NCBI RefSeq assembly: GCF_003334255.1
Contig: NZ_QOWU01000014.1
Length of the DNA: 64,000 bases
Direction: 5' to 3' (one strand)
Origin: Escherichia coli
GTDB lineage: Bacteria > Pseudomonadota > Gammaproteobacteria > Enterobacterales > Enterobacteriaceae
Both the position numbers and the translations under genes were made by a program. The notes below the pieces were generated by a model. That model made no database searches. It was not told the DNA's origin and saw nothing but the letters and a program-made list of their open reading frames with translations. Shown piece after piece: positions 2,208 to 64,000 of the stretch. The stretch's first letter is position 1. Each line of letters starts with the position of its first letter.

Positions 2208-3599
2208 TTACTGTTTTTCTGGTGGGAAAATCAGATTCAGCACGATGGCAGTAATACCGCCCGCGGCGATCCCGGAGGAGAGCAGGTTTTTCAGCCATTC
2301 AGGGGCAAACTGCAAAATCAGCGGCTGCTGAGACACGCCCAGACCAACCGCCAGCGACAGCGCGATAATCAGAATCGCCCGACGGTTCAGCGGCTCACGA
2401 GAAACGATACGCACACCGGAGGCGGCGATGGTGCCAAACATTACAAGCGTTGCGCCGCCCAGAACCGGTTCTGGAATGTGTTGTACAAAACCGCTCACTG
2501 CCGGGAACAGACCCAGCACGATCAACATCAGCGCGACGACAAAACCGACATAGCGGCTGGCAACACCAGTCAACTGGATCACTCCGTTGTTTTGCCCGAA
2601 GCAGGAGTTCGGGAAGGTGTTAAACACCGCCGAAACAAACGAGTTCAGGCCGTTTGCCAGCACGCCGCCTTTCAGGCGTTTCATGTACAGCGGACCGGAC
2701 ACTGGCTGTTCGGAAACGTCAGAGGTCGCCGTGATATCGCCAATGGTTTCCAGCGAAGTGATCATAAAGACCAGCATCAGCGGCAGCAGCAGACTCCATT
2801 CAATGCCAAGACCGTAATAGAGCGGCGTTGGCACCATAATCAGTTCTTGCGTCATAGGTTCGTTGCTTTCTGGCAACATGCCCATAAACCACGCCAGCGC
2901 ATATCCGGCCGCCATCGCAATTACCAGTGAGGCCACGCGTAAGTAAGGGTTACGTTGACGGTTAAGCAGGATAATTAAGGCTAAGACCACGCCTGCCAGC
3001 AGCAGATTTTTCGGTGCGCCGAAGGTGTTATCGCTCATGGCTGCGTAACCGCCGCCAATGGACGTTAACCCAACCTGAATTAGCGACAGGCCGATAATCA
3101 TCACCACAACGCCAGAAACCAGCGGCGTAATAATGCGGCGCGCCAGATGCAGAACGCGGGAGATCACCATCTCGGTGCAACTTGCCAGCATCAACGTGCC
3201 GAACAAAGCCGCCATCATGGTAGGAACATCAGCACCACCGGTTTTCAGCGCGGTACCGCCCATAATCAGCGGGGCAACAAAGTTGAAGCTGGTGCCCTGA
3301 ATAGACAACAGCCCGGAGCCAACCGGACCCCAGGCCTTAATTTGAATAATCGATGCCACACCGGAGGCAAACAGCGACATACTAATAATGTGTTGCGTGT
3401 CTTGTGCCGGTAAACCCAGCGCCTGGCAGATTAATAGCGCTGGCGTGATCACCGCAACGAACATCGCCAGCAGATGCTGACAGGCGGCAAACAGGGTTTG
3501 AGGAAGCGGCGGACGATCTTCAAGACGGTAAATCAGTTCGCTGTTTTGAGTCTGCGCAACCGGTTGCGCATTTTCTGACTCGAGGGTGGAAACAGACAT
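2208..3599 (-). CDS. xanP: xanthine permease (NCS2 family)
   Basis: polytopic membrane ORF; ATG 3 codons inside track ORF gives 463 aa starting [12 protein letters not shown]. Confidence 0.85.
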
Positions 3600-3878
3600 C
3601 GAAAACAATCCCGTGGTAGCAAAGCGGGCATTTTAGCTGACCGAAAGAGAAAAGCAAACGTTTGCCACATCCTCATCTAAATATTTAAATGAGATAAATG
3701 CACTTTTTTATATAACTTTTGGTATTTTTCTGCTTAAAATCCATGCCATTTGTTCATTAACAGCTGAGAATTTGACCCAGGAAAGCATAACTCGATACCC
3801 GTCATAGTTCATGAAGTTGCCACTGCGCGATGAAGTATGACGAGTATGAAAGAGTGATGCGGATACAAAGGAGTAACT

Positions 3879-7339: not shown

Positions 7340-8029
7340 TTACCCTGCAGCCTGCATAGTAGCCCACCAGTCGGCATCAGCTTCGATCTCGCCTTGCTGA
7401 TTGACGTGGGGATAAGGCAGGCCTTTGCGTTTTGCGACTTTCGCCAGCACCGGATAGCCGCCTTCAAACAACAGGCGTTGTTGCTCTGCTTCCGGCAACA
7501 TGCTGTTTTCACGCAGGTACATGCCTGCATTTTGCCGCTGACGCTGGGCTTCGTAAAGAATGAGGGCTGAGGCAACGGAAACATTCAGCGACTGCACCAT
7601 GCCGATCATCGGAATGATGATGTCCTGATCCGCCAGGGCCAATGCTTCCTGCGTGATGCCCGTTTTCTCCTGTCCCATCAAAATGCAGGTCGGGCGAGTG
7701 TAATCAATTTCGCGGAAATCGACAGCGTTATCAGAAAGATGGGTTGCCAGAATCTGCATGCCCTGGCCTTTGAGATGAGCGACGGCATCGCCAATGGTGC
7801 GGTGTGTTTTCACCTGTACCCAGCTGTTACTACCCGCCGCTGCCGAAGCCATGGTGCGCATGCGGCTACCAGGCCAGACGGCGTGAACTTCATGTACGCC
7901 AACGGCATCTGCGGTACGAATAATCGCAGAAACGTTATGAGGTTTGTGGACCTGCTCCATGCAGACGGTCAGATCAGGCTGCCGCCTGGCGAGCATTTCG
8001 CAGATGCGTGCATAACGTGTTGGGTTCAT
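7340..8029 (-). CDS. trmH: tRNA (Gm18) 2'-O-methyltransferase
   Basis: 229-aa SpoU-family ORF between spoT and recG, same strand, 5-bp gap to recG. Confidence 0.9.
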   Translation of the reverse strand: MNPTRYARICEMLARRQPDLTVCMEQVHKPHNVSAIIRTADAVGVHEVHAVWPGSRMRTMASAAAGSNSWVQVKTHRTIGDAVAHLKGQGMQILATHLSDNAVDFREIDYTRPTCILMGQEKTGITQEALALADQDIIIPMIGMVQSLNVSVASALILYEAQRQRQNAGMYLRENSMLPEAEQQRLLFEGGYPVLAKVAKRKGLPYPHVNQQGEIEADADWWATMQAAG

Positions 8030-54002: not shown

Positions 54003-55150
54003 TATTGCATTGCTTTATAAGCGGTTACCGCCTCGGATACAACCTCGCTGTTGGCATCAAGACCGGAAATCTGTGCCAGCGCCGCCTGCGGACCTTTGTC
54101 AGCGATCAGTGCTGCCAGTTCCTGAGCCTGCGGATCATCTTCACTGCGGAAGTGCATTGCAGCGGCAATACCTTCAATCAGGTTTTTATGTGGCAGACCA
54201 TATTCCAGCGTACCGAGCAGTGGCTTGATCAGACGGTCGCCAGCACTCAGTTTACGCAGTGGCTGACGGCCTACGCGCTCTACATCATCTTTCAGATACG
54301 GGTTCTCAAAACGGCCGAGAATTTTCTGGATGTACGCCGCATGCTTGTCAGCGTCAAAGCCGTAGCGCTTGATCAATACTGCACCACTTTCTTCCATCGC
54401 ACCTTTTACCACCGCGCGGATTTTCTCGTCGAGAATCGCGTCACGAATGGTCTGATGACCGGCCAGTTTTCCGAGGTACGCGGTTATAGCATGACCCGTG
54501 TTCAGGGTGAAGAGTTTACGTTCGACAAATGCCATCAGGTTGTCGGTTAACTCCATGCCTGGGATGTTCGGCAGTGCGCCTTTGAACTGCGTTTTATCGA
54601 CAATCCATTCGCTGAAGGTTTCTACCGTCACTTCCAGCGGATCGTTAGTTGCCGAAGCCGAAGGCGGTACGATGCGGTCAACGGCGGAATCGACAAAGCC
54701 AACGTGTTCTTCTACCCACGCTTTGGCGTCTTCCGGCAGGGCGTTCATCACATGGCCTTTCAGCTGCGTGGTACCGCGTACCATGTTTTCACAGGCGATG
54801 ATGTTCAGCGGGGATTCATTACCTTGTTCTTTACGTTTCACCAGCCCTTTGGCGATTGCCGGAGCAATACGTTCCAGCACAACCGGGCCAACGGCGGTAG
54901 TGACTAAATCAACCTGAGCAATCAGATCAACGACATCATCACCAATGCTGCTGACAGCATTGACGCCGGAAACGGTATCTACCTGCTCGGTTTCACCAAC
55001 CACATGTACCTGATAGCTATGACGGGCATTCAGGGCATCAAGTACCACCTGATTGACATCGGCAAACGTCAGTTGGATACCCGCGTCTGCCAGCAGTTTA
55101 CCGATAAAGCCACGACCGATATTACCTGCGCCAAAATGTAATGCTTTCAT
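54002..55150 (-). CDS. mtlD: mannitol-1-phosphate 5-dehydrogenase
   Basis: 382 aa from internal ATG ([20 protein letters not shown]); the longer track ORF is read-through of the REP spacer. Confidence 0.93.
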
Positions 55151-55179
55151 AGTATTAACCTTCATCAATGTTTTTACCC

Positions 55180-55375
55180 GAGAGGGCTGGGGTGAGGCTT
55201 TTCCCTCACCCAAACCCTCTCCGTGAGGAGAGGGGCAGCGCCGGATGCGGCGTAAGCGCCTTATCCGGCCTACAAGAACGTGCAAATTCAACAAATTGTG
55301 ATGCATCCTGTAGGCCTGATAAGCGTAGCGCATCAGGCAATTAACCCCACCTTCTCCATGTGGAGAGGGTGGGAT
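55180..55375. repeat. composite REP cluster in the mtlA-mtlD spacer
   Basis: two inverted REP units (GCCGGATGCGGCGTAAGCGCCTTATCCGGCCTACA and TGTAGGCCTGATAAGCGTAGCGCATCAGGC) flanked by GGTGAGG/CCCTCTCC palindromes. Confidence 0.8.
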
Positions 55376-55379
55376 TGGA

Positions 55380-57293
55380 TTACTTACGACCTGCCAGCAG
55401 TTCCAGCACTTCATCCACGCTGGTGGTGTGTGCCAGACGCTCGATGACGGACTCATCATCCAGTGCATTGGTCAGGCTGGTGATAACCTGAATGTGCTCG
55501 TTGTTACGGGCAGCAATACCAATCACCAGACGGGCAATGTCATCTTCTTCTTCACCGAAGCGCACGCCTTCCGGGTACTGGCAGAACACGACGCCCGTTT
55601 TCAGTACGCGATCTTTCGCTTCAACCGTACCGTGTGGCACCGCGATAGACTCACCCAGATAAGTCGGGGTCAGTTTTTCACGATCCAGCATCGCCTGAAC
55701 GTATTCCGGCTCAACGTAACCGCCTTTCACCAGCTGCTCGCCAGCAAAACGAATCGCTTCTTCTTTGGTTGCCGCTTTGCGACCGAGGAAGATGTTCTCC
55801 GCGCCTAGCTTGAACAGGTTAGCACTGGAATCGTCAAAGCTGTCTTTCAGGCTGTCTTTTACTTTCTCTTCGTTTGCCGTGTGGCGTTGGGCAGCAACCA
55901 GACGTTCGGTCAGGCTGGTGTACAGGCCGCTGTCGAGGAAGTTGGTCAGCGAAATATGCTGTGCCTGCGGAACCTGGCGCATAGCGCGTTCGGTCAGGTC
56001 ACGGTGAGTGATGACGAGGTCCACATCTGGCGGCAGGTTGTTGATCGCGCTGTTAGTAACAGAAATCTGCGACAGACCTGCATCCTGAATTTTCTTACGC
56101 AGAACGCCTGCGCCCATCGCACTGGAACCCATACCGGCGTCACAGGCAACGATGATTTTACGTACGTGGCTCAGGTCGTTAGTCACATCGCCAGCAGACA
56201 GCGGAGATGCGCCTTTAGACTCAGCTTTCATGTCCTGCATACGACGAGTTGCTGCTTCAATATCATCTTCTTCTTTCACTTTGCTGGTTTTCAGCAAAAT
56301 AGCAGAGACAACGAAGGAGACAGCCATCGCCGCACACACACCCGCGATGTTAGCGAAGTAAGCACCTTTTGGTGTCATCGCCAGTACAGCAAGGATAGAA
56401 CCCGGAGATGCCGGAGAAACCAGACCACCGCCCAGGATAGTCAGCGTGAACACGCCAGTCATACCGCCGAGGATGACTGCGAGGATCAGACGCGGATTCA
56501 TCAGCACATACGGGAAGTAGATTTCGTGGATACCCCCCAGGAAGTGGATGATTGCCGCACCGCCCGCAGACTGTTTAGCGCTACCACGACCAAAGAACAT
56601 GTACGCCAGCAGCACGCCCATACCTGGACCTGGGTTAGCTTCAATCAGGAAGAAGATTGATTTACCCAGTTCATGGGACTGCTGAATACCCAGCGGCGAG
56701 AAGATACCGTGGTTAATGGCGTTGTTGAGGAACAGGATTTTCGCCGGTTCAACAAAGATAGACGCCAGCGGCAGCATGTCATGGACAACCATGAAGTTAA
56801 CGCCCGCAGCCAGCATTTTGGACAGGGCTTCAACAATCGGGCCAATGCCGAGGAATGCCAGAATAGCGAGGATCATCCCGATGATGCCTGCGGAGAAGTT
56901 ATTCACCAGCATCTCAAAACCGGATTTGATCTTACCGTCTACCCAGCGGTCGAAGTGCTTAATGCACCAGCCGCCCAGCGGACCTGCAATCATAGAACCG
57001 AGGAACATCGGCATGTCTGCGCCGACGATAACGCCCATGGTGGTGATGGCACCGACTACGCCGCCACGTTCGCCGCCTACCAGCTTACCACCGGTATAAC
57101 CGATCAGCAGCGGCAGGAGATAAGTGATCATCGGCCCGACCAGCTTCGCCAGCGTCTCGTTCGGTAACCACCCTGTTGGAATAAATAACGCGGTGATGAT
57201 ACCCCACGCGATAAACGCGCCGATATTTGGCATCACCATGTTGCTGAGGAAACGACCAAAGCTTTGCACTTTGATCTTAATATCGGATGACAT
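55380..57293 (-). CDS. mtlA: PTS mannitol-specific EIICBA component
   Basis: 637 aa [39 protein letters not shown]. Confidence 0.95.
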
Positions 57294-59790: not shown

Positions 59791-60228
59791 TCATTCATCG
59801 ATGCACTTTATAGAATCATCAATGGCCATAATAGTACTATTAACTCTCAATTTTATATTTTTATCATCACTACAAATATTAACTGAATTTATATCAATGA
59901 TTTTTTTATTCTTATCTTTTATTTTATTTACTGTTTCAATGCAATCAGCGGCAAGTTGGAGTGGATTTAGATTTTTCAGATATGGTCTTATGATCTTTCC
60001 CTTACTTAATAAATAGCATGTATAGGATTCGGAAAGTCCAGCATCTATTTTGTACCTCATTATATTAGATAAGGATGTGAGAAATTCCTTGTTATCATTC
60101 GCAGCCATATATGCCAGTCCGAGTTCAGCCTCTGCGGCCTTACAGGCAAAATAGCTTAGTGAACACGCTTTTCGTCCCTCTTTAGTACTGGCTGATATTA
60201 GTGCCCATAATATTGCTTTGTCTGCCAA
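59791..60228 (-). CDS. hypothetical protein, possible immunity gene of the decayed rhs module
   Basis: 145-aa AT-rich ORF immediately downstream of the rhs remnant; TTG start in track, first in-frame ATG is 40 codons in; weak Sel1-like segment KAAEAELGLAYMAAND. Confidence 0.35.
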   Translation of the reverse strand: MADKAILWALISASTKEGRKACSLSYFACKAAEAELGLAYMAANDNKEFLTSLSNIMRYKIDAGLSESYTCYLLSKGKIIRPYLKNLNPLQLAADCIETVNKIKDKNKKIIDINSVNICSDDKNIKLRVNSTIMAIDDSIKCIDE

Positions 60229-60316
60229 ATCTAACTCTCTCTGAAATTGTCTTGCAGTAACTGCACTCGCAGAAATAGAGAAAAAAATACAATTGTTAAT
60301 AATCTTGCCATATTTT

Positions 60317-60930
60317 TTAGTCCGTAACTGTTAATGTGCTATCTGGCTCTGAAAATATTAACTCATTTAATTTTTGCATGTCATTAGATAAACCAGTTAT
60401 ACAACCCTCGGAACAGAATCGAGGTCCTAAAGACGGACCAAAAGCGTTTAAACAACTATGTATTGAAAATCCATTGCGATTATAAGTTCCTGTATTAACT
60501 GACGGTACTAATCGTATGCCGTCAGGTTTTCTATTGCTTGCTCCCGGGTCATTAACATTCCAACTCCATAGGCCTTGAGGTATTGGCCATCTATTTATAA
60601 ATGTGTACAACGGGGATTATTTTTACATTGCATATTATTACCAGAAGCGACTGGAATACTAAGCACATCATAAAAATTATCATCACATGGTATATCTGAA
60701 ACACACGAAAGCATACCTAAAGTTATGCTGTATAAACAGGTGGCTAATCCCAAGGGGATCGATTCCAGAAATCGGGTTCAACGGATACTGATAAAAATTC
60801 CACCTACCTTCCAGCCCAATCGGAGCCTGAGTGTTATACCGCCCCTGCTGCGGTTAATGTTACCGATAATAGTTATAGTACAGCCCTGATTCATCATCAT
60901 ACTACTGCTGCGGCAGTCTGATGAACTATT
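60317..60930 (-). pseudogene. decayed orphan rhs C-terminal fragment (frameshifted)
   Basis: 60750-60930 encodes a degenerate Rhs core end ([32 protein letters not shown]) that hits a stop near 60600, while a 97-aa ORF 60317-60610 continues in another frame. Confidence 0.55.
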
Positions 60931-60934
60931 GCTT

Positions 60935-61396
60935 TTACGGATTCTCCTTATTCTTCCTTCTATCCATTCGCTTTAGCTTTTTGAGCTCTTGAAGTTTGCT
61001 CTTTGCATCAATATTACCGTTATTTACAGCGAATTCCATCCAATAAATAGCTCTATTCAAATTATAATATTCTGATAATGTTGGATTTGTATCTGATAAA
61101 AAGACCCCATAATTAAACTGCGCTGTAACATTCCCCTGAGATGCTGATCTTTCCAAGAATCGCAATTGTTTGTAAATGTTATTTTTAGTAAAGCAGTAAT
61201 ATTGATATAGTCGAAATGATGCCTCTGAATCACCATGTTGTGATTTATACTTCAGTTTCATCAACTTTTCTTCACTTAAATCATAGGTCATTGCTGTAGA
61301 CCCCATCATACTTTCGTTTTGTTTTATTTTCACATCAGCACCATGCAATTGACAAATAAAAGAGAAATAAAAAAATAGTAACAAGCATGCTTTCAT
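60935..61396 (-). CDS. yibG: Sel1-repeat protein with N-terminal signal peptide (YibG-like), candidate immunity protein
   Basis: 153 aa; hydrophobic N-terminus MKACLLLFFYFSFICQLHG then Sel1-like repeat SASQGNVTAQFNYGVFL; directly downstream of orphan rhs tip. Confidence 0.75.
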   Translation of the reverse strand: MKACLLLFFYFSFICQLHGADVKIKQNESMMGSTAMTYDLSEEKLMKLKYKSQHGDSEASFRLYQYYCFTKNNIYKQLRFLERSASQGNVTAQFNYGVFLSDTNPTLSEYYNLNRAIYWMEFAVNNGNIDAKSKLQELKKLKRMDRRKNKENP

Positions 61397-61407
61397 ACAT
61401 CTACAAC

Positions 61408-62346
61408 CTATCTTATATCACTGGGTTTTTCTGGCGTACCTTGCATATTAGAAATGGGGTGCCCAGATGGCCCATATGTTATCCAATTACCAAGGTCTTT
61501 TGTTGTTATAGCCATTAGATCCTTATTTGAATTAAGGTTCGTTGGTGCTGTTAGCACTGTATCCATTTTTAACTTACCATTAGTTCCTCGCCCCCACCAC
61601 GTCCATAGCGTGTCAGGTCCTATTACATTTGTATGTAACTCTTTAGCTAATTGGCTAGCAAATGAATTTTGTCCTTTACCTGTATTACAAGAAAATAACC
61701 AAACTGTCATCCCATCTTTATAATTCCCATCAAATTTAATTAGATATGCTAGATCTTTAGCTGTCATGATACTGCGCGTTGCGGATTCAATAGATGTGGG
61801 GGTACCATGCCCCCCGATTGTGAAAACGCCTGGGATATTAATCTCATCAGCTACAGAATGGATAAGATCACTTTCGGGGTATAAATTTATATCAACCAAA
61901 CCTTGCGGATCTACATTTATGACCGGATTCAACGGATACTGATAAAAATTCCATCCCCCCTTCAGTCCAATCGGATCCTGAGTGATATACCGCCCCAGCA
62001 GCGGGTCATAATAGCGGTGGCGGTTGTAATACAGGCCGGACTCCTCATCATACTGCTGACCCGGCAGGCGAATGAGCTGCTGCAGATGATGCGGGTTCTC
62101 ATCACTCAGCAGGTTGCCCCATTCATCATATTCTGCGCACCACGCTGTTGCCCCTTCCGTGCTGATGAGCGCCAGCGGCAGGCCGCGATGGTCGCAGTGG
62201 TACAGGTGGATTTTTCGCGCCGGCGTGTACACCGGGTCCATCTGGTTTTGCATCTGCTCCACGGTCAGGCCGCACGATGCCAGCCAGCGGCGGCTTTCCT
62301 CACTCACCCGGTCAGCCAGGATTTCACTTTCCAGCCGGTCGAGCAT
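61408..62346 (-). CDS. orphan Rhs C-terminal toxin module (core end plus variable CT)
   Basis: starts inside Rhs core homology (MLDRLES...[26 protein letters not shown]...[39 protein letters not shown]) followed by about 160 aa of unrelated sequence; ATG at third codon of track ORF. Confidence 0.75.
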
Positions 62347-62393
62347 CTGCACCGTGCCGGCGGGAATCCCCCACTGTGCATAGGCAACTCACG

Positions 62394-63236
62394 CTATGAA
62401 CGCTTCAGCTTATCAATAGCGGAAGTTATAATTTCATTGTCATCAAACTTGTACAACATAGTATCTAAAACAGGAAGTAGCGTTTTATCACCTAATTCAC
62501 CCGCAGCTTCAATGATATCATCATAAACAGTATTTTTTTTTAACTCATCGCATAAAACAGATAAAACCCTTTTATCTTTTCTGTAGGAAAGTCCGATTAT
62601 TGCTTCAATACGGACTTCCTCATTTTTATCCTGAAGCATCTCCACAAAACAATCCCTAATATCACTATTATCATATTTATTGATATTTATTGCAAATGCG
62701 GCCCAGTTTCTGACATCTCCATTTGGATCTTTTAACAGATTAATCAATAGTGGAATTGTTGCTTTATCATTGATAACAGAAATAGCAAATGCTGTAGCAC
62801 GTCTGACATTAGTCGATTTATCAAAAGCAGTAATTTGAGATTGTTCTACTATTTTAGGTGAATAAATTGGGTTTTTCTTGCATCGCTGAGCTGTTGACTC
62901 GATTGCCGTAGCTCGAACGCAAGCGCTCTTATCATTCAATGCCATATTGTTCAAAATATTAAAAACATTATCTTCGCATTTTTTGCAAATTTTTATTTGC
63001 CCGAGTATAAATGCTCCGATATCTCTACGGATATAATTTTTATCAGAGCAGAACTCAATTGCCAATCTAACAGCGTCTTGCCCACCTCTTAACTGTAATA
63101 CTCTGGCAGATGAAATCCTTTTCAAGGAATTGTGATCATCAAGTAAGCGAAATAATTCATCATCATTTAGTTTCTTACATTGATTATATAAACCATACTC
63201 TTTACTTGCCTTTCTTTTCTGGTATGTATTTGACAT
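62394..63236 (-). CDS. yibA: HEAT-repeat protein YibA, candidate immunity protein for the main Rhs tip
   Basis: 280 aa from internal ATG (MSNTYQKRKASKEYGLYNQ); directly downstream of main rhs stop. Confidence 0.8.
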   Translation of the reverse strand: MSNTYQKRKASKEYGLYNQCKKLNDDELFRLLDDHNSLKRISSARVLQLRGGQDAVRLAIEFCSDKNYIRRDIGAFILGQIKICKKCEDNVFNILNNMALNDKSACVRATAIESTAQRCKKNPIYSPKIVEQSQITAFDKSTNVRRATAFAISVINDKATIPLLINLLKDPNGDVRNWAAFAININKYDNSDIRDCFVEMLQDKNEEVRIEAIIGLSYRKDKRVLSVLCDELKKNTVYDDIIEAAGELGDKTLLPVLDTMLYKFDDNEIITSAIDKLKRS

Positions 63237-63256
63237 TGCAGGAACCTCCACAAGGG

Positions 63257-64000
63257 CTATCTTTTTTTATCGTTTGACTGTCTGGAGTGACGACAATTCC
63301 AGGCTTTCTGTGTGCTTTTTGCATCTTTAGCACTAATATCACCACAATCAATTAGTTCCTGAAGTACGTCACATCTGTCGGGTTTTTTCCCATCACTCCA
63401 GAATCTGTCATTTATTATGTCATTGACACGATCAGTTATCCCTGTGTCTGCAACATTTCCACGAGAAGCTATCATTGTTATATCTAATGCTAGTCCCGGA
63501 TTATTCAATATTAGAGAGTCAAATATTCTTTGTGATGCTGTATCGTTCCACCATTTTGTCAATGCTTTTGCAGCATTATCATCTGCTTGCTGCTGTGCAG
63601 GGCTTTTGGGCCATGGAATTGGCAAGGGGAATGGTCTAGGAAAAACTTCTAACCCCAGAGGATCTGTATTCGTAACTGGATTCAACGGATACTGATAAAA
63701 ATTCCATCCCCCCTTCAGCCCAATCGGATCCTGAGTGATATACCGCCCCTGCAGCGGGTCATAATAGCGGTGGCGGTTGTAATACAGGCCGGACTCCTCA
63801 TCATACTGCTGCCCCGGCAGGCGGATAAGCTGCTGCAGCTGATGCGGGTTCTCTTCATTCAGCAGGTTGCCCCATTCATCGTATTCTGCGCACCATTCTG
63901 TTGTCCCTTCCTTGCTGATAAGGGCCAGCGGCAGGCCGCGATGGTCGCAGTGGTACAGGTGGATTTTTCGCGCCGGCGTGTACACCGGGTCCATCTGGTT
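63257..64000 (-). CDS. rhsA: 3' end of main rhs gene (core end plus C-terminal toxin tip), partial at window edge
   Basis: frame open to window end; encodes ...[26 protein letters not shown]...[39 protein letters not shown] then about 130-aa variable tail; gene symbol by synteny only. Confidence 0.75.

Follow-up and report, generated by a model that had tools for sequence, protein, structure and literature searches.

Introduction

The closest described architecture to the locus considered here is that of the Rhs main/orphan arrays (Koskiniemi et al. 2013, 2014), represented in Escherichia coli by rhsA and, in enterohaemorrhagic E. coli (EHEC), by the RhsA/RhsAI pair. In EHEC strain EDL933 this pair consists of RhsA, encoded by z5014 fused to z5017, and RhsAI, encoded by z5018, the fusion having been confirmed by polymerase chain reaction (PMC7216683). 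In the same in-silico study of EHEC, RhsAI was annotated at 132 amino acids (aa) without a signal peptide, and a phosphatase activity was guessed for the tip (PMC7216683). The present analysis concerns two adjacent open reading frames (ORFs) of “the window”, i.e., the whole 64,000-nucleotide stretch of E. coli DNA that was analyzed (contig NZ_QOWU01000014.1): a displaced Rhs fragment, equivalent to yibJ, and yibG. Their architecture is no different from that of the main/orphan arrays, with which they share a truncated core ending in DPxGL, a tip of low GC content, a small downstream gene, homology to the main gene and the occurrence of the same tip on RhsA of O157:H7. The layout of a displaced Rhs cassette is textbook, and the locus is annotated in every E. 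coli genome; what appear to be undescribed in the searched literature are the assignment of the tail to clan CD and a conserved Sel1 partner whose export would indicate action in the envelope.

Several families of caspase-like peptidases resemble the tail. Tce1 and Tce2, DUF4347 effectors of the H3 type VI secretion system (T6SS) of Pseudomonas aeruginosa (Tce1 structure 9qpe), are Hcp-loaded cargo rather than Rhs tips and lack an immunity gene; in yeast, Tce2 is toxic (PMC13323088). The tail shares about 12% identity with Tce1 and, unlike it, has a conserved exported partner. The Peptidase C80 cysteine protease domains (CPDs) of MARTX RtxA, TcdA and TcdB are internal, self-cleaving domains activated by inositol hexakisphosphate in the eukaryotic cytosol, whereas the tail is terminal, acidic (isoelectric point 5.7) and has no PF11713 match. 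Finally, the “Tox-Caspase” class comprises domains with a caspase-like H/C fold that are C-terminal in Rhs toxins and occur in arrays with degenerate copies (Zhang et al., 2012; PMC3482391). Going by this description, the tail family would fit the class. Imm36 and Imm57 were given as the Tox-Caspase partners, Imm57 being linked with Tox-Caspase in gammaproteobacteria; unlike the reading proposed here, that paper listed no Sel1 partner and proposed no extracytoplasmic site (Zhang et al., 2012; PMC3482391).

Exported Sel1-repeat immunity proteins are known from T6SS toxins: PA5086-PA5088 for PldB of P. aeruginosa (as cited in PMC7216683) and Sel1E for VgrG4 of Klebsiella pneumoniae (PMC7108748). 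Like YibG, these are small Sel1-like repeat proteins encoded beside a T6SS toxin. What they neutralize is a phospholipase D or the C-terminal domain of a VgrG, whereas the counterpart of YibG would be a cysteine protease; YibG is also shorter, with about 2-3 repeats.

A displaced Rhs cassette beside yibG

Taken together, the evidence presented below makes it probable, in our view, that the locus is a displaced Rhs cassette whose clan CD His/Cys tail would act in the cell envelope and would be blocked there by exported YibG. The Rhs fragment (61408-62352, minus strand) encodes 314 aa from an internal GTG. Its first 152 residues (61897..62352) are a 5'-truncated Rhs core remnant, matching TIGR03696 (E 3.7e-25), positions 1111-1261 of the 1261 of NF041261, and PF03527 (E 4.7e-15). 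The core closes with the motif DPQGL, of the PxxxxDPxGL type, and the variable tail, a predicted C-terminal toxin domain of 162 aa (VDINLYPES...PSDIR; residues 153-314; 61411..61896), starts directly after it and is directly followed by the stop codon (61408-61410). The base composition breaks at the core/tip junction: GC content is 0.575 for the core but 0.391 for the tail, and lower still, 0.323, for yibG. Only 11 bp separate the fragment stop from the start of yibG (60935-61396, minus strand, 153 aa).

The core remnant is 95.4% identical in nucleotides to the core of the main rhsA gene over 323 nt (61925-62247 against 63678-64000), which is all that the window holds of the latter; it is, judging from this identity, what supplies homology for recombination with the main gene. 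The RefSeq annotation of this DNA in other E. coli gives a partial “RHS repeat-associated core domain-containing protein” with a missing N-terminus, followed by “yibG: sel1 repeat family protein”. The sequence-only reading had described an orphan toxin tail beside a yibG-like ORF within 60935-62346. Both ORFs indeed lie on the minus strand, the end given at 62346 falling inside the fragment. With a core carrying DPxGL, a missing N-terminus, homology to the main gene, a GC break, a small downstream gene and a tip found on full-length Rhs proteins elsewhere, the locus is, on these sequence features, a displaced (“orphan”) Rhs toxin-immunity cassette of the E. coli rhsA locus, in which the roles of toxin and immunity protein are predicted.

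The tail carries an invariant His/Cys pair and is predicted to adopt a clan CD fold

Close homologues of the tail are few, the nearest being displaced tips of Salmonella with 44-47% identity. A profile search of 1.84 billion representative proteins returned 729 matches at E<=1e-3, including 116 at E<=1e-10. Many of the 729 form the very C-terminal end of Rhs/YD proteins, immediately behind DPxGL, and full-length Rhs proteins with the tail domain are encoded after VgrG and PAAR genes in Rheinheimera (locus L004) and at locus L022. An alignment of 87 tail homologues, with 13% mean column identity, was used both for conservation and for the final structural model. Its only invariant columns are His30 and Cys70 (87/87 each), followed by Gly31, the residue next to the histidine (86/87). 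His30 (residue 182 of the ORF, codon 61807..61809, minus strand) lies in the motif FTIGGHG after a predicted beta-strand (24-28) and is the predicted catalytic histidine. Cys70 (residue 222 of the ORF, codon 61687..61689, minus strand) lies in VWLFSCNTG between a predicted strand (64-68) and a helix (79-87); it is the sole cysteine of the tail and the predicted nucleophile. The Cys and His motifs (IGGHGTP and WLFSCNTG) that had suggested a Cys/His hydrolase from their appearance are thus not a chance resemblance, both residues being invariant in the 87 homologues. Searches of the ORF against Pfam, NCBIfam and the PDB sequences returned nothing beyond its Rhs core.

The fold prediction points in the same direction as the earlier suggestion of a hydrolase, and specifies it. 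A first AlphaFold (AF2) run with a 4-sequence alignment reached a mean predicted local distance difference test score (pLDDT) of 61 and was discarded; with the 87-sequence alignment, the model reached a pLDDT of 89 and a predicted template modelling score of 0.86. This model matches clan CD cysteine proteases. The top PDB matches found by Foldseek were CPDs of the MARTX type (E 7e-3, probability 0.97); legumains, PIGK and CHAT came next. The list of structural matches comprised the C-terminal domain of P. aeruginosa Tce1 (9qpe, “DUF4347 domain-containing protein”; listed figure 8.8), the V. cholerae RtxA CPD (8.2), the TcdA CPD (7.8), Lys-gingipain (7.3) and SAVED-CHAT (6.6), with legumain, clostripain-like C11 and the glycosylphosphatidylinositol transamidase below. 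Neighbors of the model in the AlphaFold database bear the names “Peptidase C80” or “DUF4347”. The Pfam matches of the 87 relatives are weak and all fall in clan CD: Peptidase_C80 (2/87 at E<=1e-3), DUF4347 (best 6e-3), Peptidase_C13 and CHAT. Besides, the dyad reads in the order His-Gly ... Cys, each residue following a hydrophobic strand (VFTIGG-H-G; VWLFS-C), an arrangement typical of clan CD. The fold of the tail is hence predicted to be of clan CD, caspase/C80/DUF4347-like, and from the model we infer a cysteine endopeptidase (or transpeptidase) that would use the His30/Cys70 dyad.

Other enzyme classes were considered and set aside. An alpha/beta-hydrolase lipase was ruled out by the lack of a GxSxG motif and by the match of the fold to clan CD, and a papain/NlpC-P60 amidase because Cys precedes His in that class and its fold differs. 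In L,D-transpeptidases the His-Cys spacing is about 16-18 residues, against 40 here, which excludes that class for the tail; this type of fold belongs instead to a neighboring decayed cassette, described below. The Stv domain (PF21527; bioRxiv 10.1101/2022.08.23.504947) is likewise an uncharacterized CPD-like His/Cys domain found at Rhs C-termini, alongside C80 domains. Unlike it, the tail does not match PF21527, and the Stv assignment was rejected since Pfam-A scans of the tail (E<=10) and of the 87 relatives gave no such match.

The domain does not occur only as a terminal tip. Actinobacterial proteins hold it internally, upstream of other toxin domains, and giant proteins of 3000-7000 aa hold 2-6 internal copies, some without His or Cys; the repeat region of a giant protein matched only DUF4347 in a Pfam scan, at E 0.038. 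In P0110 (4395 aa), residues 2600-3450 contain copies in which His or Cys is lost, e.g., STLGTATSM and LFAGHTG. Instead of being toxins, such degenerate copies may serve in processing or have a structural role. These internal copies, and the statement that releasing peptidases make up most of the caspase-like domains in polymorphic toxins (Zhang et al., 2012; PMC3482391), would be in line with the tail being a remnant of a self-processing (“releasing”) peptidase, or a dead cassette in a decaying region, with no role as a toxin. We regard this explanation as quite improbable. Both here and in full-length Rhs proteins, the domain is the C-terminal-most one, right after the Rhs cleavage motif, and leaves nothing downstream to release. 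Moreover, it has a dedicated and conserved downstream partner, which is also found alone and in an immunity array.

YibG is a probable Sel1 protein with a predicted export signal

YibG begins MKACLLLFFYFSFICQLHGADVK. Sel1-like proteins are built of tandem alpha/alpha repeats of 36-44 aa. For the Sel1-type repeats that had been noticed from the letters, the match is weak in Pfam (Sel1 E 1.2; TPR_27 E 8e-4) and clear against solved Sel1 proteins, with E about 6e-8 for 6ok3 and 8sxq (phmmer, PDB sequences); further matches are 5jkp (E 8e-4) and 5jjo (E 0.16), which we take to be PA5087/PA5088.

Export signals were called by a hydrophobicity and charge heuristic, together with conservation in relatives. 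The N-terminus of YibG shows Lys2, then 13 uncharged residues (mean Kyte-Doolittle hydropathy 2.45), then the polar QLHG|AD. A membrane anchor needs more than the 13 residues of this hydrophobic stretch, which is of the kind typical of Sec signals. The predicted signal peptide (MKACLLLFFYFSFICQLHG; 61340..61396, minus strand) would probably be cleaved at G19|A20 to leave a mature protein of 134 aa (with the stop codon, 60935..61339), which, from its PDB matches, RefSeq name and conserved position, is probably the cognate immunity protein. The layout of the N-terminus is kept in homologues down to 25-30% identity, and a G or A stands at the aligned -1 position, with an acidic residue next, in the relatives with a Sec-type layout and at locus L005. 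A lipoprotein was ruled out for E. coli YibG, which has no lipobox. YibG would accordingly be exported to the periplasm via a cleavable Sec signal, in agreement with the signal-like segment noted at first sight; nearly all relatives carry either a Sec-type signal or a lipobox.

A YibG homologue, mostly with a predicted export signal, follows the toxin domain in other lineages

A genome scan for related loci with a 6-sequence alignment gave 8 loci. The DNA downstream of the toxin domain was read at ten loci of the family besides that of the window, and at nine of them the next ORF was a YibG homologue of 107-153 aa. Loci with a YibG-family gene in this position are those of Salmonella (L002), Rheinheimera (L004, L008 and L009) and Streptococcus (L011 and L014), as well as L005, L006, L022 and L023. 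Loci L005 and L006 are metagenomic, the homologue of the former being an uncalled ORF, and the partners at L022 and L023 match the YibG-family profile at E 1e-12 and 1e-15, respectively. P0266, another member of the YibG family, is encoded downstream of a protein longer than 1597 aa. The sole exception among the loci read, L024, has an unrelated small downstream protein, itself with an N-terminal hydrophobic signal. This recurrent position, directly downstream of the toxin domain across lineages and after the intact RhsA of O157:H7, supports the idea that YibG is the cognate partner of the tail.

About 17 of the 21 full-length partners that were checked carry an export signal. A Sec-type layout was found in all enterobacterial members, Enterobacter and Salmonella among them, and in those of Rheinheimera, L006 and P0266. 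The L005 partner has a hydrophobic N-terminus without a basic (K/R) n-region, while L023, P0260, P0263 and P0269 have a lipobox (AGAC, LLSC, LVGC) instead of a Sec-type signal. Immunity genes are known to occur as stand-alone copies and in arrays. YibG-family lipoproteins stand alone in a housekeeping context, between DUF2130 and NMO genes, at L016-L018, from human-associated metagenomes, and a YibG-family copy belongs to an array of small genes including WapI at L019; by gene context, both situations are orphan-immunity behavior. From this distribution, an extracytoplasmic location looks ancestral for the YibG immunity family, in diderms and monoderms.

One streptococcal locus showed a further peculiarity. 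In Streptococcus timonensis (L014a), the partner looks signal-less and a 29-codon mini-ORF with a lipobox (MEILKNFFILFLLLTPLISC..., LLLTPLISC) lies upstream. This mini-ORF (L014 3331-3420) terminates at the start codon of the gene for the Sel1 partner (3417-3740), in another frame, with an ATGA overlap after a run of A. The toxin upstream of the partner is likewise split into two ORFs. The mini-ORF and the partner are probably a single, frameshifted lipoprotein immunity gene.

Site of action and proposed mechanism

With an immunity protein that is predicted to be exported in diderms and lipid-anchored in some monoderms, the site of action of the toxin would be outside the cytoplasmic membrane. 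The proposed mechanism is as follows. After Rhs delivery, by a T6SS where VgrG and PAAR genes are linked, the tail would be released and would act as a cysteine peptidase on an extracytoplasmic substrate, while exported YibG would bind and block it as its immunity protein. The substrate would be either a protein of the envelope or the peptide moiety of peptidoglycan. An exported partner in both diderms and monoderms would point to a universal envelope substrate; the candidates common to both envelope types, which are speculative, are the peptidoglycan stem peptide, lipid II and a penicillin-binding protein. In the present genome the toxin tip would be stored, and yibG could still protect against neighbors deploying the tip.

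A number of observations weigh against this reading. As regards the fold, the Foldseek E-values against the PDB are weak (7e-3), and the tail itself has no Pfam match even at E<=10, PF11713 and PF14252 included. As regards export, the signal of YibG is called heuristically and the -3 residue of its proposed cleavage site, Leu, is not ideal. At L022 (CP063166.1; VgrG-DUF2169-PAAR-Rhs), the Sel1 partner of a full-length Rhs protein (7611-7955) has no signal, and with only 2 extra upstream codons possible there is no room for one, which makes it the one clear Gram-negative exception. The streptococcal type that begins MKSNANISIN... is also signal-less in L011, L014 (L014b) and P0250. As regards activity, the nearest structural relatives (CPDs and Tce2) act in the eukaryotic cytosol, a lone catalytic thiol would face oxidation in the periplasm, and Tce1 and Tce2 are not toxic when expressed in E. 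coli (PMC13323088). At the locus itself, the Rhs fragment has neither a native start nor an evident promoter, and a scan of 60700-62500 for promoter and terminator consensus sequences gave nothing above chance. A literature search found no functional study of yibG or yibJ.

Some of these points would be accounted for if the tail were a protease with a cytoplasmic site of action, in the manner of the papain-type Cpe1 or of the C80-like Tce2, with YibG neutralizing it elsewhere than in the periplasm or having an N-terminus that is no working export signal. Such an enzyme would suit the signal-less partners at L022 and in streptococci, the cytosolic place of work of the structural neighbors and the preference of a catalytic thiol for a reducing compartment. 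This alternative seems unlikely to us given that the partners with an export signal span Enterobacteriaceae, Rheinheimera, other proteobacteria and Gram-positive lipoproteins. Among the close homologues of the signal-less streptococcal type, P0260 and P0263 retain an intact lipobox and P0267 shows a decayed signal upstream, and even the non-Sel1 partner of L024 has a signal.

An anti-eukaryotic effector, comparable to Tce2 or to MARTX-type CPDs and with YibG as an adaptor or chaperone, would agree with Tce1 being the closest solved structure, with the yeast toxicity of Tce2 and its lack of an immunity gene, and with the frequent role of Sel1 proteins in host interactions. This possibility appears very remote: a chaperone for T6SS/Rhs cargo would stay in the cytoplasm instead of being exported, the partner gene is also found as an orphan and within an immunity array, and the family is present in free-living aquatic bacteria and oral streptococci alike.

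Envelope action of the tail, opposed by exported YibG, thus remains our preferred reading. The periplasm-acting toxin that had been suggested from the signal-like segment of YibG is upheld by the comparative evidence of exported partners, and we consider a periplasmic site of action a well-supported inference. It is not a demonstration, because the partner at L022 and some streptococcal partners are signal-less and the closest structural relatives act in the eukaryotic cytosol. The broader proposal, i.e., that a clan CD protease would serve as an interbacterial toxin outside the cytoplasmic membrane, with an exported or lipid-anchored Sel1 protein as its inhibitor in diderms and monoderms, is put forward more tentatively, as a possibility that we rate somewhat below even odds.

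The tail and yibG across E. coli strains

The tail and yibG are present at >=80% coverage in 3429 of 5426 complete E. coli genomes (~63%), and in many of these a full-length “RHS element core protein” is annotated over the tail. In E. coli O157:H7 PNUSAE147325 (L021 6474-10703), the tail ends an intact RhsA of 1409 aa, and yibG is the next gene. That locus has neither the K-12-type tip nor yibA and represents a natural tip replacement. The occurrence of the tail on intact RhsA in O157:H7 indicates that the cassette would be a live tip elsewhere and a stored, promoter-less tip here. Indeed, a fragment with no native start or evident promoter would be a stored tip, movable onto rhsA by homologous recombination. 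The toxin is probably silent in the present genome.

Expression of yibG is a separate matter. In genomic SELEX (systematic evolution of ligands by exponential enrichment) of K-12, the RpoD holoenzyme showed in-vitro binding peaks in the yibA-yibJ and yibJ-yibG intergenic regions (PMC3946193). The equivalent positions in the window are about 62353-62393 and 61397-61407, where the consensus scan was not above chance. With RNA polymerase sites between yibJ and yibG, as indicated by this in-vitro binding only, separate expression of yibG would be possible.

The tail is not intact in all strains. In a comparison with E. coli K-12 RV308 over 2166 bases, the window showed 2 differences (61653 and 62250). 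At position 61653, the G of the window is an A in K-12, so that Gln82 of the tail becomes a stop (NSFAS*) and the K-12 tail ends after residue 81. The tail is thus dead in K-12 and intact in the window, and the nonsense codon explains the 233-aa YibJ of UniProt, which aligns over only 80 residues. Besides, clusters P0018 and P0020 carry a frameshifted allele at the GGHG codons, in a run of G (window about 61805-61816), which fits the loss of one G. With a frameshift exactly at the codon of the predicted catalytic His, some strains would have inactivated the tail by a second, independent route. These two lesions, as well as the missing N-terminus of the fragment, favor the dead-cassette form of the explanation considered quite improbable above; the tail is nevertheless intact in the window and on the intact RhsA of O157:H7.

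Neighboring features of the locus

The last 10 kb of the window are the E. coli mtlADR-yibIH-rhsA region, whose rhs genes lie on the minus strand. In the 5' to 3' direction of this strand, the order is the 3' end of rhsA, yibA, the 314-codon ORF, yibG and a decayed second Rhs remnant with a frameshifted Imm57 gene. The main rhsA 3' end, with its core and its own, different tip (63257..64000, minus strand), leaves the window. It is followed by yibA (62394..63251, minus strand), which encodes a HEAT-repeat protein (NF007244 E 3e-140; RefSeq annotation) and stands between the main gene and the displaced cassette.

Downstream of yibG lies a second, decayed displaced cassette (59791..60900, minus strand). 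It comprises a remnant of Rhs core with in-frame stops (about 60725-60900), a 97-aa ORF resembling Tlde1/YkuD (60317-60610), with weak matches to Tlde1_dom (E 0.008) and YkuD (E 0.04), and an Imm57 gene (59791-60228 and upstream) that is frameshifted according to RefSeq, all on the minus strand. This looks like a decayed toxin of the L,D-transpeptidase type, i.e., periplasm-acting, with its immunity gene. The link of Imm57 with Tox-Caspase in gammaproteobacteria, described in the Introduction, would fit the rhsA locus studied here.

Further away, in the mtlA-mtlD intergenic region (window about 55150-55470), the longest mtlD ORF runs about 100 codons upstream of the annotated start. This extension reads repeated PSPHGEG-type peptides, which suggests repeated DNA similar to repetitive extragenic palindromic (REP) elements.

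Biological significance

With yibG and yibJ in about 63% of complete E. coli genomes and a working RhsA tip in O157:H7, these genes are common, yet without assigned function; they now form a directly testable pair. The chromosomal yibG would mask toxicity assays in ordinary laboratory E. coli, which bears on experimental design. The known periplasm-acting T6SS/Rhs toxins comprise papain/NlpC-P60 amidases, glycoside hydrolases, lipases, pore formers and L,D-transpeptidase-like enzymes. If the proposed mechanism is true, these toxins would gain, with a clan CD protease at work in the envelope, an activity class of their own and a target of a new kind, and a toxin class not yet described for T6SS/Rhs effectors would be carried by most E. 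coli genomes. It would also explain the retention of yibG in many strains, K-12 included, as protection against neighbors that carry the tip.

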